Below are positions 1-13,972 of a stretch of 28,657 nucleotides of DNA, piece by piece. The position numbers and the translations under genes are program-made. Source of the DNA: a virus (taxonomy: Duplodnaviria; Caudoviricetes); IMG/VR virus record IMGVR_UViG_3300020045_004230, positions 1-28,657 of that record; one strand, 5' to 3'. The notes below the pieces were generated by a model. That model saw only the letters and a list, made by a program, of their open reading frames with translations. It was not told the DNA's origin and made no database searches. The number at the start of each line of letters is the position of its first letter. Position 1 is the first letter of the stretch.

Positions 1-250
1 TTGCCTTGTCGGTAATTGGGATAATTTCAATTACTTCAGTTAGTAACACTTCATCAACTGCAACCGGAAAACGGCAATTTTGTGGCTTACTGGTTCCATC
101 GGTCGCAAGTTGCGAAAGTGAGGCCGCCCCATCCCAGTAGTGAATACGTCTTGCGCCTGTCAATGTCGCTTCTTTACCATTGCGCTCTTTAACTGTACCA
201 GCGAAAACACCCGCCGAATAAGTTCGAACCATACAATATTTACCAATCAT
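1..250 (-). CDS. DUF6948-like phage protein, 3' end runs off the window (not in ORF track)
   Basis: ATG at 250 preceded by GGAG. Translates MIGKYCMVRTYSAGVFAGTVKERNGKEATLTGARRIHYWDGAASLSQLATDG...; the RTYSAGVF and WDGAASLSQLA motifs are recalled as DUF6948. Confidence 0.75.
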   Translation of the reverse strand, partial: MIGKYCMVRTYSAGVFAGTVKERNGKEATLTGARRIHYWDGAASLSQLATDGTSKPQNCRFPVAVDEVLLTEVIEIIPITDKA

Positions 251-350
251 TTTTGTCTCCAAGTTTTGTAAAGCACCCAGAATTAGATACTTTAAAAAAC
301 GCCGTCCTAAAACGGCTAAGTAACAAAAGAGCGCATCTCGTTTTGTTGAT

Positions 351-396
351 TTGAATTATAGCAGAGCTTTTAAACTTTGCAACTTGTTTTTTGCAT
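351..396 (-). promoter_or_regulatory. Sigma70-type early promoter, copy A (TTGCAA-N16-TATAAT, extended -10 TGn)
   Basis: Minus strand reads TTGCAA agtttaaaagctctgc TATAAT. Near-identical to 8004-8049 and overlaps the last codons of the VRR-NUC gene. Confidence 0.75.
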
Positions 397-877
397 CATC
401 AAAGCCATAAGCCAGAATATAATGCTGCCCAATCCCATGGATATAATCTCGCCATACTTCTTGCTCCTTGCTCAATACGCCGCCTTTTATTCGCTTCATT
501 TCAACCCAGCACAGCCACTCAGGTATAAAAATATCAGGTACGCCCGGCGACACTCCCTCCAATACTAAAGCTGCCGCCTCGCGCTCGTTACGGTTCCCGC
601 CATTGGGTATGGCTGCAATCTTCACGCCTGGGTATGTGCATTTAAACCAGTGGATTAAATTCACTTGTTCACTATGTTCGGTCGGGATGCGTTTAGATTC
701 TTTTTTCTTTGCTTCAATTTCACGCGCCACTATTTCGGCGGTATCTAAAATAGTATCGCGGTCTTCCTTTGGCTGAGTCATTGCATAATTAATAACCAGG
801 TTACGATCTTTCTTTTTTAGCCCCTGGCGCTTACATAAAAGATCAAGCTCTGATCTAAAAAAATCATCTGTTATCAC
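356..877 (-). CDS. VRR-NUC domain nuclease (Holliday junction resolvase-like) with N-terminal extension
   Basis: EHSEQ..., IPNGG, GVPDIF...VEMK (PD-(D/E)xK motif), LSKEQ..W. Confidence 0.85.
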   Translation of the reverse strand: MITDDFFRSELDLLCKRQGLKKKDRNLVINYAMTQPKEDRDTILDTAEIVAREIEAKKKESKRIPTEHSEQVNLIHWFKCTYPGVKIAAIPNGGNRNEREAAALVLEGVSPGVPDIFIPEWLCWVEMKRIKGGVLSKEQEVWRDYIHGIGQHYILAYGFDDAKNKLQSLKALL

Positions 878-1092
878 ACTCTACCCCTAAAATATTCCAA
901 AAAATTATCACGTTGGTCGGCCGGCTCAAGCATCAAGTCGGCAATGATGTCATCACTCAAATTTAGCTCCTCAAGCTGCATTTTAAATATACTGCACTCC
1001 ATGGTTAACAATCCTGTTTCCGTGTAACCACGGGCTTTATTTTCGTCTGTAGTATCGGCTTTTTGCTGATTAAGTGCCGTTAATATGTCCAT
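874..1092 (-). CDS. Hypothetical protein
   Basis: 72 aa, overlaps both neighbouring genes (translational coupling). Confidence 0.65.
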   Translation of the reverse strand: MDILTALNQQKADTTDENKARGYTETGLLTMECSIFKMQLEELNLSDDIIADLMLEPADQRDNFLEYFRGRV

Positions 1093-1502
1093 TACACATC
1101 CCTCTTTAAAGACTCAGCAAATTTACGCGCCACTTCATCATGGAAGGCTTGCTCTTCAGGTGTGTAACCAGCTTCTTTTATCTTTTTTAATGCGTATTTT
1201 AGTTTGTGACGCGCTTTTATCTTCTCCTTATTAGCATCTTCGTAGGCTTTTCTACTCGCGGCTATTTTCTCTTTATTAGCCGATTGATAGGCTTTAGAAC
1301 GCGCTAATAATTCCTCTCTATTAGCATCGTAATAGACTTTTCTACTCGCTAATATTTCCTCTTTATTAGCCCTTTCATAGGCTCCTCTTTGACGCGCTAT
1401 TTTTTTATCTTTATTAGCCGCGTAATAGGATTTATCTTGTGCTTTTATCTTCTCTTTATTGGCCTCCCTATAGACCTTCCTTTCCTCTGCTGTCATTGCC
1501 AT
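1092..1502 (-). CDS. Basic helical repeat protein (six ~15-aa YxxAN(K/R)(E/D) repeats)
   Basis: YREANKEKIKA / YYAANKDKKIA / YERANKEEILA / YYDANREELLA / YQSANKEKIAA / YEDANKEKIKA; abuts the helicase stop codon. Confidence 0.8.
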   Translation of the reverse strand: MAMTAEERKVYREANKEKIKAQDKSYYAANKDKKIARQRGAYERANKEEILASRKVYYDANREELLARSKAYQSANKEKIAASRKAYEDANKEKIKARHKLKYALKKIKEAGYTPEEQAFHDEVARKFAESLKRDV

Positions 1503-3215
1503 TTAATACCCCCATGAGCGAACTTTATCAAAGCCTTTTTCTTTTGCTACGGTTACGGTTTTTATCTGTTTAAAGAACCTTTCAAAATATTCCTCGCCCA
1601 ACAGGAAAAGCACAGATTTAACATTGACTCCACCTTCGAACTTGCTCATCTGGTAATAGTCGCGCTTGTTTTTCAGCATATCCATAATTTTGGCGGTGGC
1701 TAAGTTTTTAGCCTGTCCGGTATGCTCGATGCACAAATAATCATTGGCTAAATGGTTCCCAGCCTCATCATAAAATGCCATTTTAATCATCTTGATAACG
1801 CTTTTCTTACTGATAGCCTCATCAAATAGCACCTTACTAACTTCATAAGTAAAAGCCATTTCAGCCGCTTTTTTAGCGAGTGCCTCGGCTTTGGTTCGCA
1901 TAGTGTAAAGGCCTTCTTCTCCTTCACTGATAAATTCAGCACCGCAGACCTTACAGCGTTTCGCGCTTAGCAGGTTTGGATAGGCACATTCTTGCCCGGC
2001 GTGGTAGGTTAGTCCATCAAAGATTATGGTCTCGTCAATGATGGCTAGGCAAGTTTTGCGCGGAGGGTCTGATTTGCGTTTTTTGGTTTTAGGTATTTTA
2101 ATATCATCGATACCGCCAAGCCTTTCAATATTACTTCCATAATCCCATATTTTTCCTATTAAATCCCCATATGGACGTATTAGCCTGCCTAGCATTTGAA
2201 TCAGCAGCCCTGGACTTGTAGTCGCTCTTAGCAATACTATTGCTTGTAAGCTGGGCATGTTGAAGCCGGTAGTGTAAATATTCACGTTTACAAGATAACG
2301 CGGGCCCGAGCCATTTACAAACCAATCTATATTCCTGGCGCGTTCGTGCGCAGTGCTGCGACTGCTTGTCATGCGCATAGTTGATGCATCACCCCATTGC
2401 TCCAAAACTTTTTCGCCACTGTCGCAATTTGGCACAAATATCAGCGCCGTTTCTATTTCGTTGTCGATAAATCCTTGCTTAAAATCATCTACCGATTTTT
2501 CACATATAGCATCGAATCTTAATCCAACATCCGTTTGATTAAACTCATGTCCTGACATTTTAACGCCAGATAAATCGACGGTAATATTATGCGTATTAAT
2601 TACCTCGATTTGCGCTAAATGCTTTTCTTCTACAAGTCGCGCTATTCCTGGATCAACGCTTGTATCATAAGGTATTGAATTAAAAAGAGGCTCACCCTTT
2701 ACACACTTTTCAGTCAATAATCCTTGTCCAAGTCGATATGGCGATGCTGTCATGCCGCATATACGCATATTCGGATTTATACGTAACAAACTTGTTACAA
2801 TTTTACGTATCTGTGACTCTGGATTATTACCCACCAAATGCGCTTCATCAATGATTACATAATCGAATGCTCCACTACACGCCCTTTTTGAGTAAAAACT
2901 TTGATACATAGCAACTACAACCTGCTTATTTGTTTGCATCTTTCCAAGTTGCCTACATGCTATTCCTATGTCTTGCTTATTTGATAAAAACTCGAAAAAT
3001 TCTTGATAGTTTTGAGAGCATAATTCTTTTGTCGGCACAAGGCACAATACACGCCCTTTATGCTTAACTCCATAATCAGCAAGTGCGGCGGCCATAAGCG
3101 CCTTTCCTAGTGCGGTCATGACCGATATACAAGGGATTAACCCGTTATCCCAATCATTTACAATAGCCCTACATCCTGCTTTTTGGTAATACCTAAGAAC
3201 CTTTCTTTTTGTCAT
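1503..3215 (-). CDS. Superfamily 2 DEAH-box helicase (RadD/YejH-like) with C-terminal Zn finger
   Basis: LRYYQ Q-motif, TALGK (motif I), DEAH, TAS, TGFN, QMLGRLIR, distal Cys cluster. Start at ATG 3215 preferred (ORF track starts at 3224). Confidence 0.9.
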   Translation of the reverse strand: MTKRKVLRYYQKAGCRAIVNDWDNGLIPCISVMTALGKALMAAALADYGVKHKGRVLCLVPTKELCSQNYQEFFEFLSNKQDIGIACRQLGKMQTNKQVVVAMYQSFYSKRACSGAFDYVIIDEAHLVGNNPESQIRKIVTSLLRINPNMRICGMTASPYRLGQGLLTEKCVKGEPLFNSIPYDTSVDPGIARLVEEKHLAQIEVINTHNITVDLSGVKMSGHEFNQTDVGLRFDAICEKSVDDFKQGFIDNEIETALIFVPNCDSGEKVLEQWGDASTMRMTSSRSTAHERARNIDWFVNGSGPRYLVNVNIYTTGFNMPSLQAIVLLRATTSPGLLIQMLGRLIRPYGDLIGKIWDYGSNIERLGGIDDIKIPKTKKRKSDPPRKTCLAIIDETIIFDGLTYHAGQECAYPNLLSAKRCKVCGAEFISEGEEGLYTMRTKAEALAKKAAEMAFTYEVSKVLFDEAISKKSVIKMIKMAFYDEAGNHLANDYLCIEHTGQAKNLATAKIMDMLKNKRDYYQMSKFEGGVNVKSVLFLLGEEYFERFFKQIKTVTVAKEKGFDKVRSWGY

Positions 3216-3265
3216 GGTGTGCATCCTTTGTGCATTATCCTTTTTGCTTCAATTTTTATTGTCAT
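3212..3265 (-). CDS. Putative 17-aa uORF (MTIKIEAKRIMHKGCTP) coupled to the helicase start
   Basis: ATG lies just after the leader terminator, at the same offset as the ATG at 11099 in the paralogous leader. Its TGA overlaps the helicase ATG (ATGA). Confidence 0.35.
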   Translation of the reverse strand: MTIKIEAKRIMHKGCTP

Positions 3266-3393
3266 TAAATTTAGTCCAAAAAAAACCACCATTAACCCCG
3301 GACAGGAGGTTAATGGTGGTTCAGTAGGTCATGATGAGATGACTTTAAAAAATGCCCTGTCCGGCGCTTTTTGAAGTTGTGGTGATTATATCA
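3262..3393 (-). promoter_or_regulatory. Helicase leader: extended -10 promoter, hairpin 1 (loop GGACAG), intrinsic terminator (loop CTGTCC, U8)
   Basis: TGaTATAAT at 3393-3385; imperfect hairpin 3342-3377; perfect 14-bp stem 3284-3297/3308-3321 with a T8 run at its 3' end; 9-nt complement ccggacagg/cctgtccgg. Confidence 0.75.
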
Positions 3394-3449
3394 ACTTAAT
3401 AGTCTCAATGGAATTTCTAAAGATACGGATATTGATGATAGGTTAATGA

Positions 3450-4202
3450 TTATTCAATCAGATGCCCAAAAGTATCTGTACCTATGTCTCTAGGGTCTCT
3501 TTTAGTTCCTGTAAATGGATTAAATAACCAAGCCACCATCCCATGATACTTGCGATACTGATCTGCTTGGCTCGGATAAGGCTTTTCTTCCCCATTGGAG
3601 GGGTCGAACTTCATTAATTCATTTGTCACTTTTCCTCCTATGCCGTGAGCTTTTTCAATGGCTCTGGCGAATTCAATATAATGTTTTGAAATATCCCAAA
3701 ACTTGTTCCGCACTTCAATTATTTCGTGATCAAGCAGCCCCCTCTTATTATGAGGTGACATGTAAAGCGGGACGACATTGCTTATGTTGTCAACACAGTC
3801 CAAGGGTTTATAAAAATGAAGCCTACTCTCAATATCTCCGTTATCAATATCGGTAACATCATACAACCACGCCACTGGCTTGTCGTCAATGCTTATATTG
3901 TCATTTTTCTTTGCAAGAGCAGCTATAGCCATACGGATAGTCTCATCCACTCTTTCAGGGAGCATTCCGTTTTCAAGGTGCTGGTTAAGTCTGTCGATTA
4001 AATTAGTATACATTCTTGTGTTATGCTTTTCAATGCCAAAGATCGACCGGTTAATATTCCAGAACCAATGCCTATAACCTTTAAAATTAGGCGTTAAATT
4101 AAATTTAATATTTCTCCGATGACATAGCGACCACGGAACTTTTCTAAGCAACACTCTTTTATAGCTTGGATTGCCTACGTAAATCCTGTAAATTTCTTTC
4201 AT
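3450..4202 (-). CDS. Mosaic phage hypothetical protein (PVAW...PLY...FARAIEKAHGIG module plus a separate C-terminal module)
   Basis: 250-aa ORF; motifs typical of variable early-region phage proteins; internal AGGAGG + GTG at 3629. Confidence 0.7.
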   Translation of the reverse strand: MKEIYRIYVGNPSYKRVLLRKVPWSLCHRRNIKFNLTPNFKGYRHWFWNINRSIFGIEKHNTRMYTNLIDRLNQHLENGMLPERVDETIRMAIAALAKKNDNISIDDKPVAWLYDVTDIDNGDIESRLHFYKPLDCVDNISNVVPLYMSPHNKRGLLDHEIIEVRNKFWDISKHYIEFARAIEKAHGIGGKVTNELMKFDPSNGEEKPYPSQADQYRKYHGMVAWLFNPFTGTKRDPRDIGTDTFGHLIE

Positions 4203-4218
4203 AATTTCAACCCTTTAT

Positions 4219-4803
4219 TTACTTAACCCTCAAAGACTCACTACGAACCAGCTTAACACCGGGCAAGGCTTCCAGCTCAAAAATAATCGTCTCCTGGTCG
4301 AGTTTGTTTTTGTCGTCTTTTATGAGCAGTCGCAACGCTTCGGTGATTGCTGGTTTAAGCGCCTCTTTATGTTCTGGCACAGCCGGAACGGTAACGGTAA
4401 ATTCTGTCGGCAACAGCTCGGCGTCAAAATCCGCATCAAAAACCAAAGCTCCTGGCGTTAGCGAATGACTAATTTTAAACATCTCGCCGCGTGACTCGGT
4501 GATGTTGTGAGTAACCATAAATGACAGTGCACCATCACTAAAAAAATCTAAGTTCGATTGTGCGATTTTTTCAATTTTTTGAAACTTAACGCGCTGCTCT
4601 TTAGCCTGGGCAAGTGCATATTTTGCGTCATTTATATGGGACGCGTACCAGTCTGCAATATTTTCAGCTTGTCTTGCCAATGCCTGTAAAGACAGGTTTA
4701 TTTTTTCCAATTCTTCAATATCGTCCTGATCCTCTGGATCAAGATAGTATTTTCTGTCGGTCAGTTCGCGGGTTTTTTCTGTAAGTTCAAAAATTTTGCT
4801 CAT
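4219..4803 (-). CDS. Siphovirus Gp157-like protein
   Basis: MSKIFELT N-terminus, coiled coil, LPTEF, C-terminal PGVKLVRSESLRVK; located near Sak4/SSB genes. Confidence 0.7.
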   Translation of the reverse strand: MSKIFELTEKTRELTDRKYYLDPEDQDDIEELEKINLSLQALARQAENIADWYASHINDAKYALAQAKEQRVKFQKIEKIAQSNLDFFSDGALSFMVTHNITESRGEMFKISHSLTPGALVFDADFDAELLPTEFTVTVPAVPEHKEALKPAITEALRLLIKDDKNKLDQETIIFELEALPGVKLVRSESLRVK

Positions 4804-4827
4804 TATTTATTATCCTTGGTTGTGGGT

Positions 4828-4856
4828 TCGCCACGTCTTAGGTGGCGAGTTTTTAT
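4828..4856. repeat. Hairpin plus 15-bp direct repeat GTGGCGAGTTTTTAT, copy 1
   Basis: Stem tcgccac/gtggcga; 4842-4856 is identical to 5280-5294. Confidence 0.7.
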
Positions 4857-4868
4857 GAAAATCTTTCG

Positions 4869-5021
4869 TCAGGTTGTGGACTCGCCTCCGTGCCTATAAT
4901 TATCGTATGCGCGGTCGGATGATTCACTATCGCGGTCATATTGGCGACACCCTTCTCTGTCGCCGTTACGGAATGCGTCACTGCGATCTGATGGGCTCCA
5001 CTCTCTATACACGTCTTTCAT
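4869..5021 (-). CDS. 50-aa charged hypothetical protein (not in ORF track)
   Basis: MKDVYREWSPSDRSDAFRNGDREGCRQYDRDSESSDRAYDNYRHGGESTT; ATGA overlap with upstream ORF; fills the intergenic gap. Confidence 0.55.
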   Translation of the reverse strand: MKDVYREWSPSDRSDAFRNGDREGCRQYDRDSESSDRAYDNYRHGGESTT

Positions 5022-5239
5022 GATTCCACCCCAAAAAACGCCCTTACCTTTGATTCGATTTTGTACATAACATAGTCATTTTGCGGCTCAAATTCGATTT
5101 CCTTATATGCAATAATAAAAACTCGGTCAATAATTAACTCAACAAAATTAGTAATGTCATCAATACTAGGATTACCACCGGTTAAACCTACCGGTATTCC
5201 AGACTCTCTGGACAGTTCTTTTATAATTTCATTCTTCAT
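5018..5239 (-). CDS. Hypothetical protein
   Basis: 73 aa; MxNExIKEL...FVELII...FFGVE pattern seen in small phage proteins. Confidence 0.7.
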   Translation of the reverse strand: MKNEIIKELSRESGIPVGLTGGNPSIDDITNFVELIIDRVFIIAYKEIEFEPQNDYVMYKIESKVRAFFGVES

Positions 5240-5272
5240 TTTTATTTGCCTTTGGTTTTTTTTATAGTTAAA

Positions 5273-5294
5273 GCCATCCGTGGCGAGTTTTTAT
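5273..5294. repeat. 15-bp direct repeat GTGGCGAGTTTTTAT, copy 2, with short hairpin
   Basis: gcca-tccg-tggc hairpin; 5280-5294 is identical to 4842-4856. Confidence 0.7.
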
Positions 5295-5297
5295 AGA

Positions 5298-5999
5298 TCA
5301 GAATGGTATGTCATCATCCCAGTTGTCATCTTCCGGTGCAGTGGTTTTAAACGCATTCTGAACCGGCGCATTGGGTTGGTTTGTGGCTTGCTTCATGATA
5401 TGCGCGTCGAGCGTAGCGGTCATATATTTAACAGTATCCAGTCCCGCAACATACTTTTCAATACTTTCCGCTTCCACGCCGTCAATAAACTCTTTCGCGC
5501 TTTGTCCTGTGTCGCTGGCGAAGCAGATAAAGTTCGGTGTAATGCGGGTTTCGCCGCTGTCTTTCCAGCTTCCATCAGGCTGTAAAGATTGTTTCTTTTC
5601 CTCTTTCATCTGAAAAACTGCGCCCAAATGTTTGCCTTCCAAATCTTCAAAAACTTTTTTCTTTGTCGGGACTTCTGCGCGTAAATCGTAGTCATAAACC
5701 CCGACCATCTTATTTTTTTGGTTCATGCTTTCCAGTTCAGCAAGCACCATCAATTCGCCGGTGATGCGTTTGACTCCGCTGTCCATCGGTTCGCCTTCGC
5801 GGTTCTGGTAGCAAATATAAATATCGCCACTTTTGCCGCAGTCGGTTACATATCCTAAATGCACCGATTTTGATAAATTATTTTCGCCTTTTCCTTCATG
5901 GTCGAATGCTTTTGTAATAGTGATCGGGTAAAATCCCGTTTTGGTAATTTTGCCGCCTGAAAATGCGCGTACTGCTGTTTTGTCTTGTTGGAAAGCCAT
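5298..5999 (-). CDS. Phage single-stranded DNA-binding protein (DUF669-like)
   Basis: Acidic C-terminal tail DDNWDDDIPF; GFYPITITKA N-terminal strand; follows the Sak4-like ATPase. Confidence 0.75.
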   Translation of the reverse strand: MAFQQDKTAVRAFSGGKITKTGFYPITITKAFDHEGKGENNLSKSVHLGYVTDCGKSGDIYICYQNREGEPMDSGVKRITGELMVLAELESMNQKNKMVGVYDYDLRAEVPTKKKVFEDLEGKHLGAVFQMKEEKKQSLQPDGSWKDSGETRITPNFICFASDTGQSAKEFIDGVEAESIEKYVAGLDTVKYMTATLDAHIMKQATNQPNAPVQNAFKTTAPEDDNWDDDIPF

Positions 6000-6008
6000 T
6001 GTTATTCC

Positions 6009-6899
6009 TTATCTTAAAATGTCAGAGAAAATCTGTTTACTGGTTTCGTCATTATGAATGTCTATGCTGTATGAATCTTTTACATCATCCGCCGTTGTTG
6101 CCCTAACTTTTGCATTAAAGCGGCTGGTTTTTCGCGTGTAAACATTAACCACGCTCGTTCCGCTGTCCTCTGCTACTGTGCGAGGCCCGGCGCCGAACAC
6201 CCCCTTCTTCTTGGTTGTTGAGATTTCCGCTTCCATAAAAAAGACAAAATCGGCGCGATTGCTTAAAAGCCTGGGTATGCTCACATTGCCATACTCTGTT
6301 AAATCAATTTGCCATTTTTTATACAAGTCCCCGTTAGCGTCCAGCGAATCTCTCATGCGAGCGTGGGCGATTAGGATAACATTAATGCCAAGGTAATTTA
6401 ACCGATCTATACCAGCTAAAAACAAGCCTGCCCATAGCGAATGAAGCTTTTCGTAACCCTTGCTGTAGTCATAGTCTGAAAGGCTTTCAACCGGAACCGC
6501 TTGTTTCTTGTCATGCCCCTCCACTTTTGCCATAACAACCGGCTCTTTTTCGATAATATCGGCACAAAATAGGTCATTTAAAAACATGGCTCCATCAATC
6601 ACAATGGTTTTGTAGGGCGATGATTTATTTGCCAGTTTTTTTAACATTGTAAAGAACTCAGTCGAACTTTTAGGGATGTAAACAACATCCTGACCGGCTG
6701 AATTTTTAACTAAAAACTTGCCAACTCCAGCCACTTTTTCAGCGCCTTTTTCCAGTGATAGATAAAATGGGGCCTCTGCAAATTTACATAAGTGCGTTTT
6801 GCCTACCCCGTCACCGCCGTAAACTATCCCAAAATAGGGCGATCTAACGGCTTCATCAGATATGGTTAGCGCGTCCATAAATGAATGTTGTTCACTCAC
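6009..6899 (-). CDS. AAA_24 / Sak4-like ATPase (single-strand annealing recombinase family)
   Basis: Walker A GGDGVGKT, LEKG, YKTIVID (Walker B), ILIAH, DFVFF. Confidence 0.85.
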   Translation of the reverse strand: MSEQHSFMDALTISDEAVRSPYFGIVYGGDGVGKTHLCKFAEAPFYLSLEKGAEKVAGVGKFLVKNSAGQDVVYIPKSSTEFFTMLKKLANKSSPYKTIVIDGAMFLNDLFCADIIEKEPVVMAKVEGHDKKQAVPVESLSDYDYSKGYEKLHSLWAGLFLAGIDRLNYLGINVILIAHARMRDSLDANGDLYKKWQIDLTEYGNVSIPRLLSNRADFVFFMEAEISTTKKKGVFGAGPRTVAEDSGTSVVNVYTRKTSRFNAKVRATTADDVKDSYSIDIHNDETSKQIFSDILR

Positions 6900-7044
6900 A
6901 ATCGACTCCTTTGCTCTTTAAAAACTCGGTTATGGCCGTTTCTGACGCGGCTTTTAGTGTAATGTCATTGGCTGTACAGTAGACAGCTAAAAGCTTTCTT
7001 AGCTCCTTATTGATGACGATTATTGATTTTGTTGATTGCTTCAT
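6892..7044 (-). CDS. 50-aa ribbon-helix-helix-like DNA-binding protein (not in ORF track)
   Basis: MKQSTKSIIVINKELRKLLAVYCTANDITLKAASETAITEFLKSKGVDCE; strand-helix-turn-helix pattern; GGAG RBS; overlaps both neighbours. Confidence 0.6.
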   Translation of the reverse strand: MKQSTKSIIVINKELRKLLAVYCTANDITLKAASETAITEFLKSKGVDCE

Positions 7045-7280
7045 TGCTTATTCTCCAATATTTTTGCTTCGATTAGGTCTAACGCGTAAGTGTTTAACAG
7101 TTCGGTAAAATCTACGCCGCTTATTATTACCTTTTCTATTTCCACATCCTCCGGCCAACCCGGTTGACAGTATTCGGGCGGGCCGAAAAGTTGAGCCTGT
7201 TCTTCTGGCGTATAATAAAACGTAACTTCCATGTCCACGCCATTGATGCAAAGCTCTTCGGTGCGCGCTTTACTGGTCAT
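7041..7280 (-). CDS. Acidic hypothetical phage protein
   Basis: Likely start ATG 7280 (MTSKART); Y.PEE...GPPEYCQPG..EDVEI motif. The ORF track's 7370 start would overlap the upstream gene by about 100 nt. Confidence 0.7.
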   Translation of the reverse strand: MTSKARTEELCINGVDMEVTFYYTPEEQAQLFGPPEYCQPGWPEDVEIEKVIISGVDFTELLNTYALDLIEAKILENKQ

Positions 7281-7569
7281 GATTAAGAGCCAACAGTTCA
7301 GATTTTTGTTGCTGCAAATCGGAAACGCGTTCGATTGCATCCTGGCGAATTGCCTCAATTTTGTCATCAAGTGCTTTGATGACTAGCGGCAGGGTTTGGT
7401 CTTTGGAAAGTCCATCGAATTCAACATTTTTAAACTCAGAGATACGGATTAAATCCGTATCTCTGTCTCTATTATTGCTCGACACAGTACGCATTCCAAC
7501 CAATGCGCTCAATCCTCCGGTTGGGAGATATTCATAAACAGCCACTTTCATTGTTATTTTTTCTGACAT
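7270..7569 (-). CDS. Hypothetical protein with C-terminal coiled coil
   Basis: 99 aa; RBS AGGAGAATAAA-ATG. Confidence 0.75.
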   Translation of the reverse strand: MSEKITMKVAVYEYLPTGGLSALVGMRTVSSNNRDRDTDLIRISEFKNVEFDGLSKDQTLPLVIKALDDKIEAIRQDAIERVSDLQQQKSELLALNHDQ

Positions 7570-7650
7570 TTTATTCTCCTATGATTTTTAAAAAATGTTC
7601 TTTTTGAACAGCATCCTTAGTCTGCTCAATTATTAATCCAGTAAAGCTCC

Positions 7651-7713
7651 TACAGGGCCAATACCTGTATCGGCCTGATAGGTGCGGTTTTTAGCAGGCC
7701 GCTACCACCTGTA
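7651..7713 (-). promoter_or_regulatory. Structured intergenic RNA element with alternative folds
   Basis: Stems tacagg/cctgta, tggtag/ctatca and ggccgata/tattggcc, versus an alternative cggcctg/caggccg stem that exposes CCGCAC. Confidence 0.45.
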
Positions 7714-7720
7714 TATATGT

Positions 7721-7969
7721 CTAAGACATAGACCTTACCCCCACTTGCTGGTGGAAGGCCGCTAATTTAAGCATGCCTTCTTTGTTTGTAATAGATACGG
7801 TATCGGCTCCGCCTTTTACATTCGTCATCCTGACGAAATCACCCTTTTCAGTTTCGCCTTTGGGTGCGCCAAAGGGGTAAAAAGTCTCCCCCTCATTACG
7901 AGGGTTAAATCTTTCTGTAACTCTTGTAAAAGTTACATAAGGGAATTGTTTTTTTAAGTTTTCTAACAT
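7721..7969 (-). CDS. Hypothetical protein, first gene of the leftward operon
   Basis: 82 aa; RBS AGGAGAATAAA-ATG, directly downstream of promoter copy B. Confidence 0.75.
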   Translation of the reverse strand: MLENLKKQFPYVTFTRVTERFNPRNEGETFYPFGAPKGETEKGDFVRMTNVKGGADTVSITNKEGMLKLAAFHQQVGVRSMS

Positions 7970-8003
7970 TTTATTCTCCTTGGTTGTTAAATTATTTCGA
8001 CGG

Positions 8004-8049
8004 TTGAATTATACAGATACTTTTAAACTTTGCAACTTGTTTTTAGCAT
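8004..8049 (-). promoter_or_regulatory. Sigma70-type early promoter, copy B (TTGCAA-N16-TATAAT)
   Basis: -35 at 8035-8030, -10 at 8013-8008; 46-bp near-repeat of 351-396. Confidence 0.8.
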
Positions 8050-8119
8050 TTTTTTATTCCTACAAGGTTTTTATGAGTTATGATAATATCACAGCAACTT
8101 AACAAAAGGAAAAAATGAA

Positions 8120-8317
8120 ATGACAAAAAATGACGTAATCGAATATTTTGGGAGTGCAGCAAAAACCGCTAGGGCTATGCGTATAAGCCGGGCGGCCGTG
8201 TGTTTGTGGCCGGATGTCCTTACTGACGCGATAGCTTTTAAAATTGAACTGGTTACAAAAGGCGCGCTAAAAAGCGACGAAACATTGCGAATTTTGGGGC
8301 GTCTTAATGAGTCATGA
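8120..8317 (+). CDS. Cro-like HTH transcriptional regulator (P22 Cro/DicC type)
   Basis: MTKNDVIEYFGS..KTA...ISRAAVCLW...IELVTKGALK. Confidence 0.85.
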   Translation: MTKNDVIEYFGSAAKTARAMRISRAAVCLWPDVLTDAIAFKIELVTKGALKSDETLRILGRLNES

Positions 8318-10292
8318 TATTGACCAGGCGCGGCGTTTTTTAACGCTTTTGGACGAAACAGCGGAAAAATTCACATTCCAGACTTTTAACGATAAAAAAA
8401 TAGAGGATAGCGGGCCGGATGTACTGGCAAATTGGTTTCATGGGGATATTGACAGCTTATTTACGCGACTGGTCAATTATAACCGCCTAGGCGCGGGTAT
8501 TTTCGTAATGGTGCAGTCTGGCGACGGAACAGGGCGCAACACTAAAGCAGTTGACCGCATTCGCTGCATTTTTAACGAAAACGACCACGGCCTAGTCAGG
8601 GATTATCCGCCCGGCATTGAACCGCACATTATTGTGGAGTCCAGCCCCGGTAAACAGCACCATTACTTTATGTGCAATGGTTTGGAATTGGCTGATTTTA
8701 AGCCTATCCAATGGCGCATGATTAACGACTATGGCAGCGATCCAAACGCGCATGACTTGCCGCGTGTGTTGCGTGTTCCGGGCTTTTATCACAATAAAGA
8801 AAATCCGCATCTTGTCAGCATACTGCACGAGTCAGGAGAGCAGGCTTACAGTCGCGATCAGTTAATAACAGCATTTCCTCCATCAGCTAAGCCGCAAAAA
8901 ACCGCGTCTGGTAGCAGTGGAGACGATACTGGCGGCAAGATTAGCGAGGCGCAGGTTTTGGCGCTTAGATCGGCGTTAAATTGGCTTGATTGCGACGATT
9001 ACAAAGAATGGATAGAGGTTGGTATTGCGCTAAAAAATATCGGCATGGATGGCAAGTCTTTATGGCTTGATTGGTCATCGACATCCGATAAATTTGATCG
9101 TGGGCAGGCGTTTGAGAAATGGGACTCGTTTACTGCCGATTCCGCCGGGTACAAGTCGGTTTTTTGGAAAGCGGCGGCGGCTGGATGGGTTAATACAGCT
9201 AAAAAGGCGGCGGTTGGGGATGGTGATATAGGCACAGTTACAGACGGATTAACCTGGAGCTGTGCCGATGGGATGGCAGACAGCGCAAGAGCACCGGAGT
9301 TTTTAATCAACAATATTTTAGAGACTGATAGTCACGGGATGTTGGCGGGTGATTCGATGGCGTTCAAAACTTTTGTCGATTTGCGCATGGCTTATTCCGT
9401 TTGTACTGGTAAAGATTTCTTTGGTCACGAGGTTTATACCACGGGTAAGGTTTTGTATGTTTGCGGCGAGGGGCGCGGCTCTTTAGCCAGGCGGATTAAA
9501 GCGCTTAAAATTGCCGAGTCTGATTTTAATGGCAATTTAATGGTGCTGGATAATCACATCAGGATCGATAACGCGGTAGATATGGCAGCGTTACGGCTGG
9601 AGGTGTTGTCTATTAATCCAATATTAGTCATTTTTGATACCTTTGGCTCGCTGATTGGCAACACTGATGAAAACAGTAATAGCGACGTGGGTAAATCTTT
9701 ATTGATGATTAAAGATACTTGTCGCCAGGGAAAAACCTGCTCTTTGATCGTGCATCATTATGGTAAAGACAGCTCAAAAGGGATGCGCGGCGCTATTGCA
9801 TTCAAGGCCAATGTCGATTTTGAAATGAGCCTTGAACGTCAAATGCCGAGTTTTACCACTGTTTTAAGCTCAATAAAGATGAAAGACGGGGAAAACTTTG
9901 CGCCAATTGCAATGGAGGCGCAGGTGATTGATTTAGGGCTTATTAGGCAAGATGGCAAGTCATCGACCAGCTTAGCTATGAAAGCGGCGCAGGAAGGTTT
10001 TTTTAGCGCAAATAGCGGCATGAATTACGACCTTTTACAGATCATGGTTGCTATTGATAGCGCTATTGAGAAATATGGATTTAAGCATTATTTTGATGGA
10101 TCGAGCGCAATGGCGATAAATTTATCAGAGCTTAGGCCGATTGCGTACCCTATGATTATTGCGGCTCAAAATTCTAAACGTACTATCCTGTCTAATCGAC
10201 TTAAAACCCTTGTATCATTAGGTAAGATACTGTTTATTAACAACATTATTTGGATTTCCGAAGCAGAAGAAGCGCAACGGAGAGCGCAATAG
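8307..10292 (+). CDS. Primase-helicase fusion: RepB-like primase + PriCT-2 + AAA_25 (RepA-like) helicase
   Basis: VESSPGKQHHYF and DPNAHDLPRVLRVPGF (RepB-type primase); DDYKEWIEVGIALK..WS...KWDSF (PriCT-2); YVCGEG, LVIFDT, IVHH.GKD...MRG (AAA_25). Confidence 0.9.
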   Translation: MSHDIDQARRFLTLLDETAEKFTFQTFNDKKIEDSGPDVLANWFHGDIDSLFTRLVNYNRLGAGIFVMVQSGDGTGRNTKAVDRIRCIFNENDHGLVRDYPPGIEPHIIVESSPGKQHHYFMCNGLELADFKPIQWRMINDYGSDPNAHDLPRVLRVPGFYHNKENPHLVSILHESGEQAYSRDQLITAFPPSAKPQKTASGSSGDDTGGKISEAQVLALRSALNWLDCDDYKEWIEVGIALKNIGMDGKSLWLDWSSTSDKFDRGQAFEKWDSFTADSAGYKSVFWKAAAAGWVNTAKKAAVGDGDIGTVTDGLTWSCADGMADSARAPEFLINNILETDSHGMLAGDSMAFKTFVDLRMAYSVCTGKDFFGHEVYTTGKVLYVCGEGRGSLARRIKALKIAESDFNGNLMVLDNHIRIDNAVDMAALRLEVLSINPILVIFDTFGSLIGNTDENSNSDVGKSLLMIKDTCRQGKTCSLIVHHYGKDSSKGMRGAIAFKANVDFEMSLERQMPSFTTVLSSIKMKDGENFAPIAMEAQVIDLGLIRQDGKSSTSLAMKAAQEGFFSANSGMNYDLLQIMVAIDSAIEKYGFKHYFDGSSAMAINLSELRPIAYPMIIAAQNSKRTILSNRLKTLVSLGKILFINNIIWISEAEEAQRRAQ

Positions 10293-10477
10293 AACGCAAT
10301 TTATGCGTTGCGCTAAATTGCGCCGCAACGGAGCGCAATAGAACGCAATTTAGTGCTGTGTAAGTTATTGATTTATGGTTATCAAGCGCAATATAACGCA
10401 ATATAACGCAATGCAACATTTATTTGACACCGCAACAGAAAGGGTGTAGAGTGGCACTCGCCATCTACCCCCTGTTG
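10271..10477. repeat. Candidate replication origin: CGCAA iterons, IHF site and long hairpin
   Basis: 22-bp exact repeat 10282-10303/10331-10352; 10-bp periodic cgcaatataa; IHF consensus match at 10361-10373; hairpin 10433-10477. Confidence 0.7.
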
Positions 10478-10621
10478 AGTGGGCAAATGTCGGGTTGCAA
10501 ATGGGCGTAGGAACCCTTTTAAACAGTAATAAAACAAAGACTAATTTTTTATATCAGGTGGCTAATTATTGTGCCATTCCTACCCTGGTATTTGAGTTAG
10601 TCTTTTTTTTTGGAAATATAA

Positions 10622-10951
10622 ATGAGCAGAAAAATAAGCACCGTCATGATTGATAAATCAATCGAAAATGTTAAATACTTGCCAAGCAGAGAATATTTAA
10701 ATGAATGCTTCCATATTAAAAACGGTTGTTTGATATGGAAGAAACGACCTGTTGAACATTTTGAAAATAAAGAAAAGCATGAAATGTTCAACAATGCTCG
10801 ACCTGGAACAGAGGCAGGACGATTAGAAACATTAAGGCACTACGTATCAATAAAGGAAATTCAATTCCTTACCACTCATGTTTTATGGAAATTGGTAACA
10901 GGTGAAAATCCAACTGGAATAATGTTAGATGAAGGCAGGCAATCAAAATAG
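10622..10951 (+). pseudogene. Truncated HNH homing-endonuclease homolog (N-terminal part only)
   Basis: EYLNECF...LIWKKRP.EHF...FN....G.EAG...H..W...TGE.P, then the ORF ends where the DHING...N catalytic motif should be. Confidence 0.6.
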
Positions 10952-10953
10952 AA

Positions 10954-11102
10954 TTGCAATTTTTGCGGCCTTTGCTATACTGAACTTGGTTTAGAAATGT
11001 CGTGCGGATTTATTTCTAAACCCTCCTTGGTTTTTAACCTCCACCACATCCTGGCCGCACCTGGGGTGTGACTGGGGGTTTTTTTTGGATTAAATTTTAT
11101 GA
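10954..11102 (+). promoter_or_regulatory. Leader: TTGCAA-N16-TATACT promoter, hairpin 1 (loop with GTGCGG), intrinsic terminator (loop CCGCAC, U8)
   Basis: Stem 10988-10998/11012-11022; terminator 11036-11086; loop segments 11002-11007 and 11055-11060 are complementary. Confidence 0.75.
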
Positions 11103-11566
11103 GCGATAAACATGCAGAAAATAAGGCGCTTTATGCGATCGATGCCGACAATAATTTAAGGCCGTTTTTATTGTGGCAGACTAGAAGATCAAGAGTACCC
11201 CTAGGCCATTTCCCAGGATGGAACGATTGCGTGATAGAGCCAACCTGGGACGATAGTTATGAGTATCGACGTAAAATCGATCCGGTACACTCAAACATTG
11301 ATGACACACTAAAAGAGCGCGGGAGTCGATACGGCGATTTTAAAGAGCACGCACGTATTACTCAGAACATCAAACGGGCGATGGTTGATAGTCCAAATTG
11401 GGCAAGCCTAAGTGACGATAAAAGAGAAGCGCTCGAAATGTTGGCTCATAAAGTCGGGCGTGTCCTAAACGGCGATCCAGAGTATCATGACTCATGGCAT
11501 GATATTATCGGCTATACAAAGCTGGTTGCAGATACGTTGTCTCACATTGATGATGTTAAGACATGA
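11099..11566 (+). CDS. DUF6378-like domain protein with an extra N-terminal phage module
   Basis: TLKERGSRYGDF...LEMLAHKVGRVLNGDP...DSWHDIIGY; N-terminal KHAE...W...P.W....EYRRK module. Confidence 0.75.
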   Translation: MSDKHAENKALYAIDADNNLRPFLLWQTRRSRVPLGHFPGWNDCVIEPTWDDSYEYRRKIDPVHSNIDDTLKERGSRYGDFKEHARITQNIKRAMVDSPNWASLSDDKREALEMLAHKVGRVLNGDPEYHDSWHDIIGYTKLVADTLSHIDDVKT

Positions 11567-11751
11567 TAGAACCATTAATTTTAGGCGCTACAGCCCGGCT
11601 ACTGGTTGAGATATACCAGCGGTTTTTTATCGTGAGACCGTGTGAGCACACACACCAAGCAACGTATCACTCGACCGGCAAGCGGAAATGCTACGATTGT
11701 GGGGCCGAGCGGGATATTGTTGACAATAATTATGCTAAACACACCCGGTAA
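11563..11751 (+). CDS. Small protein, hydrophobic N-terminus and CxH...CxxC Zn finger
   Basis: ATGA overlap with upstream gene; CEH...CYDC. Confidence 0.55.
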   Translation: MIEPLILGATARLLVEIYQRFFIVRPCEHTHQATYHSTGKRKCYDCGAERDIVDNNYAKHTR

Positions 11752-11923
11752 TTTGTTTGTCAGCTTTAGCCTTAGCGTACCGTTTACGCTGAGCAACTTT
11801 GTTGGCGCACTTAGGGCAATGTACCGCTATCAATCGCGCAGTGAATGTTTCGCCGCACTCTGGGCAGGTTTTCTGCTCTGTGCGGCGCTGGTTGACTAGC
11901 AGGGTGCCTGGGTTAGCATTCAT
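11735..11923 (-). CDS. Small basic Zn-finger protein (putative DNA-binding regulator)
   Basis: CPEC...CPKC followed by basic helix ANKVAQRKRYAKAK; TAATG overlap with upstream gene. Confidence 0.65.
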   Translation of the reverse strand: MNANPGTLLVNQRRTEQKTCPECGETFTARLIAVHCPKCANKVAQRKRYAKAKADKQITGCV

Positions 11924-12132
11924 TAATGAATGCCATATTCTTCGTCAAGATCGTTGTACAAGCCTTCACTTTCCGGCCCGAATACAGTGAAAATCACTTC
12001 GTCGTCGTCAAGCGTAGACAATGACGAAACAAAAGAATCAATGCTCATCAACCCAAGCTCTGGGTAATCAATGGGGTCTATCTTGTAAACGCCTGAAATT
12101 GTATCCGCTGCTACATAAGTTGTGTCTAACAT
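11923..12132 (-). CDS. Small highly acidic protein
   Basis: 69 aa with 16 D/E and 1 K; AAGGA RBS and its own promoter. Confidence 0.7.
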   Translation of the reverse strand: MLDTTYVAADTISGVYKIDPIDYPELGLMSIDSFVSSLSTLDDDEVIFTVFGPESEGLYNDLDEEYGIH

Positions 12133-12178
12133 TTTAAATTCCTTGGTTTGTGGTCTGGGAAATCCAAACCGTGGATAT

Positions 12179-12207
12179 AGTATCCCAGAGTTACGTAACT
12201 ATGTCAA
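12179..12207 (-). promoter_or_regulatory. Promoter TTGACA-N17-GATACT with 12-bp palindromic operator AGTTACGTAACT
   Basis: -35 at 12207-12202, -10 at 12184-12179, perfect palindrome 12189-12200 in the spacer. Confidence 0.7.
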
Positions 12208-12280
12208 TAATTATTTATTAATAATTTAATATTGTTTTTACATCAATGCGTTATAATCACAAAAAATTAAAGGAGGGGCT

Positions 12281-12343
12281 ATGGACATTGTATTTATAAT
12301 AATTGATTTGATTTTTAACACTATAGTTATGGCGTTACCGTGA
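12281..12343 (+). CDS. 20-aa hydrophobic micro-ORF (MDIVFIIIDLIFNTIVMALP) coupled to terS
   Basis: TATAAT 12252-12257, AGGAGG 12271-12276, ATG 12281; TGA overlaps the GTG start of terS. Confidence 0.5.
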   Translation: MDIVFIIIDLIFNTIVMALP

Positions 12344-12624
12344 CAGAGACATCCAGCACAGTGCCGAAAAGTGCCGCAAAAAATTTGCCGCCAGGCGGTA
12401 GTCGAAAGGGCATACCGAACAAGGTAACAAAAGAGCTTAAAGACATGATTTTGGGCGCTCTTGATGACGCTGGGGGTCAGGCTTACCTTGCGCGGCAAGC
12501 TAACGAGAACCCCGGGGCATTTATGTCGCTGATAGGTAAAGTCTTGCCTAAAGAGATCAAGGCTGAGATCGAGGGTAATGTAATCAGCAAAGTCGAATAT
12601 CTGATTGTCCACCCTACAGACTAA
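12340..12624 (+). CDS. terS: Terminase small subunit (putative)
   Basis: GSRKGIPNK...AL...GG..YL...A..NP.AF..L.GKVLP motif; immediately upstream of and overlapping terL. Confidence 0.75.
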   Translation: MTETSSTVPKSAAKNLPPGGSRKGIPNKVTKELKDMILGALDDAGGQAYLARQANENPGAFMSLIGKVLPKEIKAEIEGNVISKVEYLIVHPTD

Positions 12625-13972
12625 AATACCGGCACGGCTAGAGCCTGCCCTTAAACCATGCAGATATAAGGGACTGTATGGCGGTCGGGGCGGCGCTAAG
12701 TCGCATTTTTTTGCCGAACAAATTATTATCAGGTGTGCAGCAGAGCAGACTAGAGCCGTGTGCATCCGTGAGGTGCAAAACTCTATCAAAGACTCGGTTA
12801 AGCAGCTTTTGTCCGATAAGATTATCAGCCTGGGCCTTGAGTCGTCATTCTCTGTATTGGAGCAAGAGATACGCGGCGTTAATGGCTCAGTGATCGTGTT
12901 TAAAGGCATGCAAAGTTATTCCGCAGCCAACATTAAGTCTCTGGAAGGTTTTGACATTGCCTGGACTGAGGAGGCGCAAACGCTGTCTCAGCACTCTCTC
13001 GACCTGCTCAGGCCAACGCTACGCAAACCAGGCAGCGAATTATGGTTTTCTTGGAACCCACGCTACAAGACCGATGCGGTTGATGCTTTCTTTCGCAAAA
13101 ATCCACCTGAAAACTCAATATCTATCCAAATTAACTGGCAGCATAATCCATGGTTTAAAGCCACTCCGCTTTACGACGACATGCTGGCTGACTATGCGGC
13201 AGACCCGGACAAAGCGGAGCATGTGTGGGGCGGTGGATATGGCTCAAGTCACGGCGCTATTTTAGCGCGATGGGTAAATGAGGCTGACCGAGATGGGCGC
13301 ATCAATGACGGCGTAACCTACGACCCCAATGGCGCTGGCATTGTCATCAGTTGCGACTTGGGTTTCAGAGACACGTGCGGTTGGTGGTATTGGCAACCGG
13401 TGTTAGGTGGCGCTAATGTGCTAAAATACGATGCAGACCACGGCCTTGATGTGGATGACTGGGTGCCACGTATTAGTGACAATATAAAAGCACTGGGCAT
13501 TACGTCGATTGATAAGATAGGCAGGATATGGCTACCACAGGATGCTAAAGTTAAGACATTTCAAAGCAAACATACAGCTCACAATAAATTCATGCAGGCG
13601 TTCGGCACGTCTAGAGTTAAGATAGTCCCTCCATCGCGAAAACTCGATCAGATCGAGGCATCAAGGACGTATATAAAACGATGTGCGTTTAATCGGGCTG
13701 AGTGTGAGGTGGGCTTGGACGGGCTTAGGGCTTGGGAATTTGATTACAATGACGACAGTGGGGTTTTTAGCCGCGAACCCAAACACAACTGGGCATCACA
13801 TCCCGCTGACGGGTTTAGTTATGGCTGTCAGGTGCTACGCGAGCCGATACCTGAAACTATTACACATCCAATCGATCAGCAATTAATTGATAAATCCGTA
13901 CAATCAATTACAATGGGATCATTGACCAAGAACCATTTAGCAAAAATGAAGTGTAACCGGGAGAATAACTAA
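12605..13972 (+). CDS. terL: Terminase large subunit (PBSX-type ATPase)
   Basis: GGRGGAKS Walker A, CIREVQNSIKDS, IKSLEG..IAWTEEA, SWNP; nuclease domain DLG..D and SHPADGFSY. Confidence 0.95.
   Translation: MSTLQTKIPARLEPALKPCRYKGLYGGRGGAKSHFFAEQIIIRCAAEQTRAVCIREVQNSIKDSVKQLLSDKIISLGLESSFSVLEQEIRGVNGSVIVFKGMQSYSAANIKSLEGFDIAWTEEAQTLSQHSLDLLRPTLRKPGSELWFSWNPRYKTDAVDAFFRKNPPENSISIQINWQHNPWFKATPLYDDMLADYAADPDKAEHVWGGGYGSSHGAILARWVNEADRDGRINDGVTYDPNGAGIVISCDLGFRDTCGWWYWQPVLGGANVLKYDADHGLDVDDWVPRISDNIKALGITSIDKIGRIWLPQDAKVKTFQSKHTAHNKFMQAFGTSRVKIVPPSRKLDQIEASRTYIKRCAFNRAECEVGLDGLRAWEFDYNDDSGVFSREPKHNWASHPADGFSYGCQVLREPIPETITHPIDQQLIDKSVQSITMGSLTKNHLAKMKCNRENN

Follow-up and report, generated by a model that had tools for sequence, protein, structure and literature searches.

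The window analysed here is the whole 28,657-base virus record IMGVR_UViG_3300020045_004230, which comes from a tailed phage, and the element in question is a putative RNA leader whose upstream hairpin loop can pair with the loop of its own terminator. A first-pass annotation had described two such leaders, here called A and B, each consisting of a promoter, a first hairpin (hairpin 1), a terminator hairpin and a U8 tract, and this layout was recovered in both. Leader A lies on the minus strand. It begins with a predicted promoter, an extended -10 element TGaTATAAT (3385..3393), followed by hairpin 1 (3342..3377; loop code GGACAG at 3362-3357) and the terminator region (3278..3322), which comprises a 17-bp terminator (3322-3283) with the loop CTGTCC (3305-3300) and the U8 tract (3285-3278). 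A GGA motif resembling a ribosome site and a 17-codon open reading frame (ORF; 3265-3212) follow (3212..3277). Leader B, on the plus strand, has a predicted promoter (10954..10981; TTGCAA-16-TATACT with the extended -10 TGcTATACT at 10973-10981), hairpin 1 (10988..11022; code GTGCGG at 11002-11007) and a terminator region (11036..11086) in which an 18-bp terminator (11036-11081) carries the loop CCGCAC (11055-11060) and runs into the U8 tract (11079-11086). GGA and then the ATG at 11099 follow 3′ of U8. Of the two promoters proposed earlier, that of leader B was detected by a consensus promoter scan, whereas that of leader A did not appear in the scan and was read from the sequence by eye. A superfamily II helicase gene (1503..3224, minus; PHROG 16; Pfam ResIII/DEAD/Helicase_C) does lie 3′ of leader A as the annotation held, but the adjoining ATG at 3265 belongs to the 17-codon ORF, whose stop codon overlaps the helicase ATG at 3215; we infer that the two are translationally coupled. 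Behind leader B lies a 155-aa gene (11099..11566, plus) followed by a 62-aa ORF (11563-11751, plus). The name DUF6378-like given to the 155-aa gene reflects an existing match, which at 23.1 bits is below the Pfam cut-off of 27.1.

In both leaders, all six nucleotides of the terminator loop are complementary to the hexamer in the tip of hairpin 1, and the exact complementarity claimed for GGACAG/CTGTCC and GTGCGG/CCGCAC was verified. The probability of finding the exact code by chance in the shuffled upstream stretch was 0.0047 for leader A and 0.0036 for leader B. The folding z-scores were -4.2 and -3.7, respectively, and none of 200 shuffles was equally stable. The tail shared by the two leaders, identical at 24 of 26 positions as read directly from the sequence, occurs exactly twice in the window even when three mismatches are allowed, and was absent from 100 shuffles.

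Both leaders counted by the annotation are present, but it had missed a third copy (leader C, 10424-10624, plus), which was found by a generalised scan 350 bases 5′ of leader B. It consists of a predicted promoter TTGACA-17-TAGAGT (10424..10452), a weak hairpin 1 (10499..10520) with the code GTAGGAA at 10507-10513, and a terminator with a side hairpin (10536..10611), in which the strand TTCCTAC (10577-10583) is unpaired and a U9 tract (10603-10611) precedes GGA and the ATG of an HNH endonuclease gene (10622..10951, plus; PHROG 99). The exact code is expected by chance in the shuffled upstream stretch with a probability of 0.0034. The HNH gene has no Pfam match of its own. Compared with an HNH_3/AP2 homologue of 184 aa, it is 41% identical over the N-terminal 91 aa of the latter and is truncated ahead of the HNH catalytic core. 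The fold of the whole region is not unusual (z -1.3), and the -10 search of the leaders found no -10 element adjoining hairpin 1. Since the fold is ordinary, a -10 is lacking at hairpin 1 and the HNH gene lacks its core, leader C may be decaying.

A BLAST search with leaders A, B and C against annotated phages gave only short chance matches, and an exact scan of viral contigs for the shared tail gave no match. A tail-anchored degenerate scan returned mostly noise: 21 of 93 distinct sequences were terminator-like, with a full 6-bp complement in four and a 5-bp complement in one. Relatives were collected with a helicase alignment, which yielded 79 viral loci including 32 in a close clade, and missing parts of records and records found by pattern were added; the helicase as a single query recovered no loci. 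A general scan covered 83 clade loci and the window, in total 1.05 Mb (overlaps included) and 211 terminator-like hairpins; of its 26 distinct hits, four were judged to be chance. Among 83 distant control loci, which span 0.87 Mb and contain 71 hairpins, two chance-like hits turned up. Before the curated counts were made, the four chance-like hits of the general scan (L028 on the minus strand, L036, L038 and L171) were dropped and a second element in G036, with a 5-bp match and a likely G·U pair, was excluded, and one separately found leader and three leaders from a covariance model were taken in. The resulting curated set comprises 26 leaders from 18 records; they carry 20 codes, and in every leader the code is complementary to the terminator strand of that leader. 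The three covariance-model leaders (L030, L047 and L008) had been found without the complement criterion, and all three carry the complement. When the codes of 12 leaders were swapped in a matrix, at most five bases matched off the diagonal except in pairs with the same code. Moreover, the relatives G034 and G035 have leader B orthologues with GTGCAG/CTGCAC in place of GTGCGG/CCGCAC in the window, a compensatory change from G-C to A-U. G035 is a close relative of the window phage (capsid 88% identical), and G034 shares 72% identity in Cro and 58% in Gam. Codes are kept within lineages while the stems change (L045/L046/L051). The earlier proposal that complementarity is retained with different sequences is borne out by the 26 leaders, the 20 codes and the compensatory orthologues, and the homologous leaders, when tested for loss of loop complementarity, kept it across the curated relatives. 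Selection on the predicted loop-loop pairing is thus well supported.

Seven records carry two or three leaders, and the codes within a record always differ. None of the nine co-resident pairs in these seven records shares a code; because only 10 of 291 between-record pairs do so (25 leaders), the differing codes are no sign of selection for orthogonality. In L030 (9250-9480), two leaders with the codes GTGCAG and GTAGTGG stand in direct tandem 5′ of an HNH gene and a helicase, and the second has its own -10 immediately after the U tract of the first. A second 12-bp terminator with the loop CATAGCCA was seen at L528 8240-8320 and L529 near 3807, with GGCTAT 42 nt upstream and without a clear hairpin 1.

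The curated leaders fall into type I, with a simple terminator loop as in A and B (16 leaders), and type II, with a side hairpin as in C (10 leaders). Seven type II sequences show a mean column identity of 66%, and eight of their 17 predicted terminator pairs are changed on both sides. Type II leaders have a conserved AAAC-AAAG linker. The codes of the curated leaders prefer to start with G or GU. The two types may be homologous, since the type II model scores some type I leaders weakly (E 0.006-0.7). The genes behind the leaders encode helicases, HNH and GIY-YIG nucleases, a methylase and small ORFs of unknown function. Genes of the HNH or GIY-YIG type follow eight of the ten type II leaders and one type I leader (9/26). 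The leader records contain 21 endonuclease-like ORFs, with seven leader-linked ones flagged automatically and three added by inspection, a linkage count that is inflated because leader-linked genes had served as queries. A helicase follows directly, or via a short ORF, in three leaders from three records. In its behaviour the unit resembles an expression cassette that is portable and often accompanies homing-endonuclease genes, and leader A may be a cassette left after loss of the nuclease gene.

Two independent scans also recovered code-bearing terminators. The degenerate pattern GTGCRG...CYGCAC...GS-T7 matched 92 loci (58 distinct), and the second hexamer lay in a long terminator loop in 34. 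Several hits with the first hexamer inside a promoter spacer were left uncounted. At the free position, every one of the 34 terminator-type hits forms a pair (31 A-U, one G-C, two G·U and no A·C), whereas four of the other 24 hits have A·C (Fisher p 0.055). They form 25 clusters at 75% identity, and an upstream hairpin is present in 32. Judging from their promoter motif, which we take to be of the Bacteroidota type, many of the hits look like leaders of Bacteroidota-type phages. A terminator-side scan, blind to the upstream sequence, covered at least 119 loci of an estimated ~220, of which 93 distinct ones had enough flanking sequence. Among these, GTGCAG or GTGCGG was found 25-70 nt upstream of 15 of 18 CUGCAC-loop terminators, which are not all independent lineages and overlap the set of the degenerate scan, against none of 75 non-terminators (p 1e-14). 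The three misses were the weakest hairpins or nearly so, and 119 permuted hexamers matched upstream in a mean of 0.3 of 18. Kissing leaders with a terminator internal loop AGTA/GAA were seen near position 1500 in L201, L202, L213, L217, L238, L250, L258, L260, L261 and L276; the internal loop presumably resembles the loop E/sarcin-ricin motif. L240, L268 and L280 (near 1500) have GTGCGG in the promoter spacer and CCGCACCCGA before a short terminator; these are not kissing leaders, and we take them to resemble antirepressor-leader motifs.

The predicted leader RNAs are 100-150 bases long. A -10 element with at least five of six matches occurs 8-35 nt 5′ of the code in 19 of the 26 leaders (shuffles: mean 6.2, maximum 13). 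Between the -10 and the code lie 10-14 nt when the hairpin is short and 20-24 nt when it is long; because this distance tracks hairpin length, the RNA would start at hairpin 1. The code lies 19-39 nt from the terminator base. The partner strand lies 13-23 nt from the U tract, compared with a median of 9 in 39 other terminator-like hairpins of the clade, a distance imposed in part by the 12-bp stem threshold. The complement ends at the loop in nine of 12 leaders, and extends by one pair in two and by 2+2 pairs in leader A. The predicted energy of the loop-loop pairing (kiss) falls in a narrow band of -8.0 ± 1.1 kcal/mol, compared with -5.0 ± 2.3 for random hexamers. Neither GGA nor ATG is part of the main stems; both follow the U tract on its 3′ side. 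Measured from where the U tract begins, the following ATG is 18-21 nt away in 15 of the 21 leaders whose ORF has at least 30 aa. Few alignment columns outside the U tract are invariant. When truncated transcripts were folded, the code duplex had the lowest energy at 81 and 87 nt for leader A and at 130 nt for leader C, and the terminator formed only in longer transcripts; the pseudoknot of leader B is not representable in this calculation. The linker of leader B (11024-11032) is the reverse complement of AACCAAGGA, the other three exact copies of which lie at gene starts (4813-4821, 7977-7985 and 12140-12148), and 14 of 15 bases match the region around 7977. An antisense action of this linker on ribosome sites was rejected as a general explanation, as the linker motif of the G034 and G035 orthologues occurs solely in the linker.

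The statement of the annotation that the leaders cannot be assigned to a named family held: the Rfam search of the leaders gave no match, with nothing reaching gathering for the window or for five relative loci, and three irrelevant hits (E 4-9) in 1-13000. No match to the guanidine-IV riboswitch was obtained with Rfam 15, the presence of its model in the copy used being unchecked. No description of such phage leaders was found in the literature searched, and candidate-RNA catalogues in supplements may list members. The annotation had suggested phage P4 CI RNA and P1/P7 C4 antisense control as analogues. P4 CI acts on seqA and seqC, which lie on either side of it (PMC4825925), and the c4 antisense RNA is Rfam RF01695 (PMC2864571). 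The leaders share with them RNA-RNA pairing in a phage early leader linked to premature termination. However, the leaders do not qualify as members: the outside-complement search revealed no separate antisense RNA with targets on both sides, and the leaders have a single pairing of 6-7 bp with no excess of outside partner sites.

The closer structural analogue is the guanidine-IV riboswitch (GGAM-1 motif), an ON switch (PMC7736828, PMC11611296) in which the kissing hairpins are proposed to stretch the linker and block the outer terminator pairs (PMC7736828); single-molecule work indicates that the kiss keeps the terminator from assembling during a narrow window of transcription (PMC11611296). 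As in guanidine-IV, a 5′ hairpin loop pairs with an intrinsic terminator loop, a pairing that is predicted and covaries in the leaders, and there is no strand exchange with the terminator arms. Unlike guanidine-IV, the leaders lack conserved ligand nucleotides (20 codes in 26 leaders, with only the preference for a G or GU start), precede phage early genes rather than sugE, transporter or guanidine genes, occur in several copies per phage genome and, in type II, set the partner strand beside a side hairpin. They also differ from classical terminator/antiterminator attenuators, in that no antiterminator invades the terminator arm (the complement ends at the loop in nine of 12). Terminators and ribosome-site hairpins of T4-family homing-endonuclease genes likewise limit free-standing HNH/GIY-YIG genes by RNA structure and termination (PMC2988022). 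In the leaders, in contrast, promoter, hairpin and terminator are upstream of the gene, the ribosome site is 3′ of the U tract and unsequestered, and loop-loop pairing is conserved. The leaders are a real, uncatalogued structured family, not members of guanidine-IV, with what by analogy would be a guanidine-IV-like expression platform.

That loop-loop pairing controls termination can reasonably be inferred from the layout and the guanidine-IV precedent. The model we favour, at a little under an even chance, is that the leader is a cis-acting, ligand-free, co-transcriptional attenuator in which the kiss would favour read-through. Transcription would start near the first base of hairpin 1, which would fold first. 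The terminator loop would leave the polymerase before the pause at the U tract, because it is located 13-23 nt upstream of it, and hairpin 1 would then capture the emerged loop. The docked complex would keep the basal terminator pairs open so that some polymerases pass, as in the guanidine-IV riboswitch; otherwise the far more stable terminator would form and a short RNA would be released. Read-through would then amount to a fixed fraction, tuned by kinetics, and the extent to which transcription reaches the helicase and other genes probably depends on the pairing. The layout, the complementarity, its covariation in relatives and the fixed spacing to the next gene are observed, and the spacing and the -10 positions favour a role in cis. 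The favoured direction draws on the guanidine-IV topology, on the code duplex preferred in truncated transcripts of A and C, and on a crude straight-helix estimate by which the linker is too short for the kiss and the full terminator to coexist in 12 of 13 long-hairpin type I leaders, including B. Read-through also appears to be needed, since essential-looking helicases lie behind these terminators and no internal promoter was found in three of the five HNH genes intervening between leader and helicase.

Several observations weigh against this attenuator model. In nested folds of full-length leaders the terminator wins by far, and the long stems are partly a product of the search thresholds (at least 12 bp; pattern gaps 11-22). 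The straight-helix estimate makes kiss and full terminator compatible in leader A and the other short-hairpin type I leaders (linker too short in 0 of 3), and leaves five of ten type II leaders compatible even if straight; steric exclusion is thus not universal. In L022/G001 (9430-9490), a long terminator with the loop ACTTCC lies 5′ of an HNH gene and a helicase without a hairpin 1, and no partner hairpin was found in this 80%-complete record. This terminator sits 10 nt past a Gam-like stop codon. Ribosomes can suppress termination near a stop codon, as reported for E. coli (PMC4824070), and the L022 terminator may be rescued by a comparable effect. Finally, no candidate trigger for switching was found, and the kiss may instead throttle transcription.

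The compatibility of kiss and full terminator in short-hairpin and many type II leaders would suit a throttle on nuclease or early-gene output, in which the kiss would strengthen termination or make the terminated RNA more stable, and leak, coupling to ribosomes or an antiterminator of the phage would account for read-through. The 9/26 leaders that precede homing-endonuclease-type genes fit this idea, as T4-like phages keep such endonucleases low through terminators and hairpins (PMC2988022), and so does the L022 terminator, which stands 5′ of a helicase without hairpin 1. We nevertheless consider it unlikely: a 17-20-bp stem with U7-U9 should terminate unaided, the one tested analogue, guanidine-IV, works the opposite way, and helicases lie directly behind leaders in three records. 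It is also conceivable, with a rather small probability, that leader RNA, once terminated, builds up and uses its unpaired loops to bind nascent copies with the same code in trans, blocking the cis kiss. Such negative feedback would serve for an early pulse or for gene-dosage or superinfection control. A 5′-end hairpin and a terminator, as predicted here, would give a stable RNA, and co-resident leaders never share a code (0/9), although this is expected anyway from the rarity of shared codes between records. The conservation of codes within lineages and the recurrence of GTGCAG in 25 clusters also speak against feedback, and an intramolecular partner has a large concentration advantage over a trans partner. 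That the leaders are widespread, uncatalogued portable phage RNA switches with the terminated leader RNA itself as the signal is similarly improbable; if true, each cassette would have an orthogonal channel to itself and would time its expression or control dosage with no protein involved.

Rop recognises the kissing loops of ColE1, and a host or phage protein might likewise read the shape of the kissing complex and decide between termination and read-through. The free code variation, the G/GU start of the codes and the conserved AAAC-AAAG linker of type II suggest shape reading, but no candidate factor was identified and a single phage protein does not explain similar elements in very different phages, so that we give this possibility little weight. 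In the annotation, a separate trans-acting RNA was supposed to recognise the hexamer as its address, in the manner of P4 CI or P1 C4. The B-type code of the window is matched by CCGCAC at 7682-7687 (minus), within a structured 150-base intergenic stretch of the leftward early region (7570-7720, minus), and that of G034 by CTGCAC 5′ of its leader in a structured stretch (L528 2030-2135). However, extra intergenic code sites numbered 21 against 19.4 expected (25 codes, 16 records); neither code of the complete record G002 had such a site, and G030 had none either. The longest outside complement to A or B is their shared tail, and no C4-type match was found in Rfam. Together with lineage-conserved codes and one code in 25 clusters, these results make a trans address very improbable, and this part of the annotation is not supported. 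As for chance or a by-product of hairpin duplication, the four chance-like hits among 26 in the general scan and the two among 71 control terminators indicate that isolated matches do arise. As an account of the complementarity it can virtually be dismissed, being refuted by the covariation counts, the blind scans, the B orthologues and the shuffle probabilities of ~0.004, and by L030, L047 and L008, which carry the complement with no such criterion imposed.

Among the 40 ORFs scanned in the window, the leftward genes include Sak4-like, SSB, Gam-like, helicase and HNH genes, and the rightward genes include Cro-like, primase, HNH and DUF6378-like genes followed by terminase, portal, capsid and tail genes. 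The closest capsid with an annotation belongs to an uncultured phage (62% identity); cultured phages reach at most 42%. As regards a role in the lysogenic immunity of a temperate element, as for P4 CI, a Cro-like gene is present without an integrase or CI among these ORFs, and the 28.7-kb record is shorter than complete relatives (36-46 kb). A host or prophage was not established by a scan of bacterial genomes, in which the helicase of the clade occurred only on two short genome-bin contigs and was otherwise represented by distant relatives. Elsewhere in the window, a 136-aa HNH-like gene contains four internal 45-base (15-codon) repeats (1209-1476), and the end of the primase gene (10283-10416) contains at least three repeats AGCGCAAT(A)..ACGCAAT, which are possibly origin iterons. 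A 46-base repeat (85%) at 351-396 and 8004-8049 carries the same minus-strand promoter TTGCAA-16-TATAAT in both copies; beyond the promoter at 382-355 come two hairpins and, at 316-295, a U tract. Near 1607 in L024, a similar motif occurs 5′ of a short terminator.

If the kiss controls termination, phages would use the guanidine-IV platform in a ligand-free form, in many copies and with interchangeable codes. The steric-antitermination model would be testable on dozens of natural variants of differing geometry, and the leaders would offer synthetic biology short attenuators with orthogonal codes. For the phages themselves, the leaders would add to early-gene control, and to the dosing of homing endonucleases, a general layer that has not been described so far.

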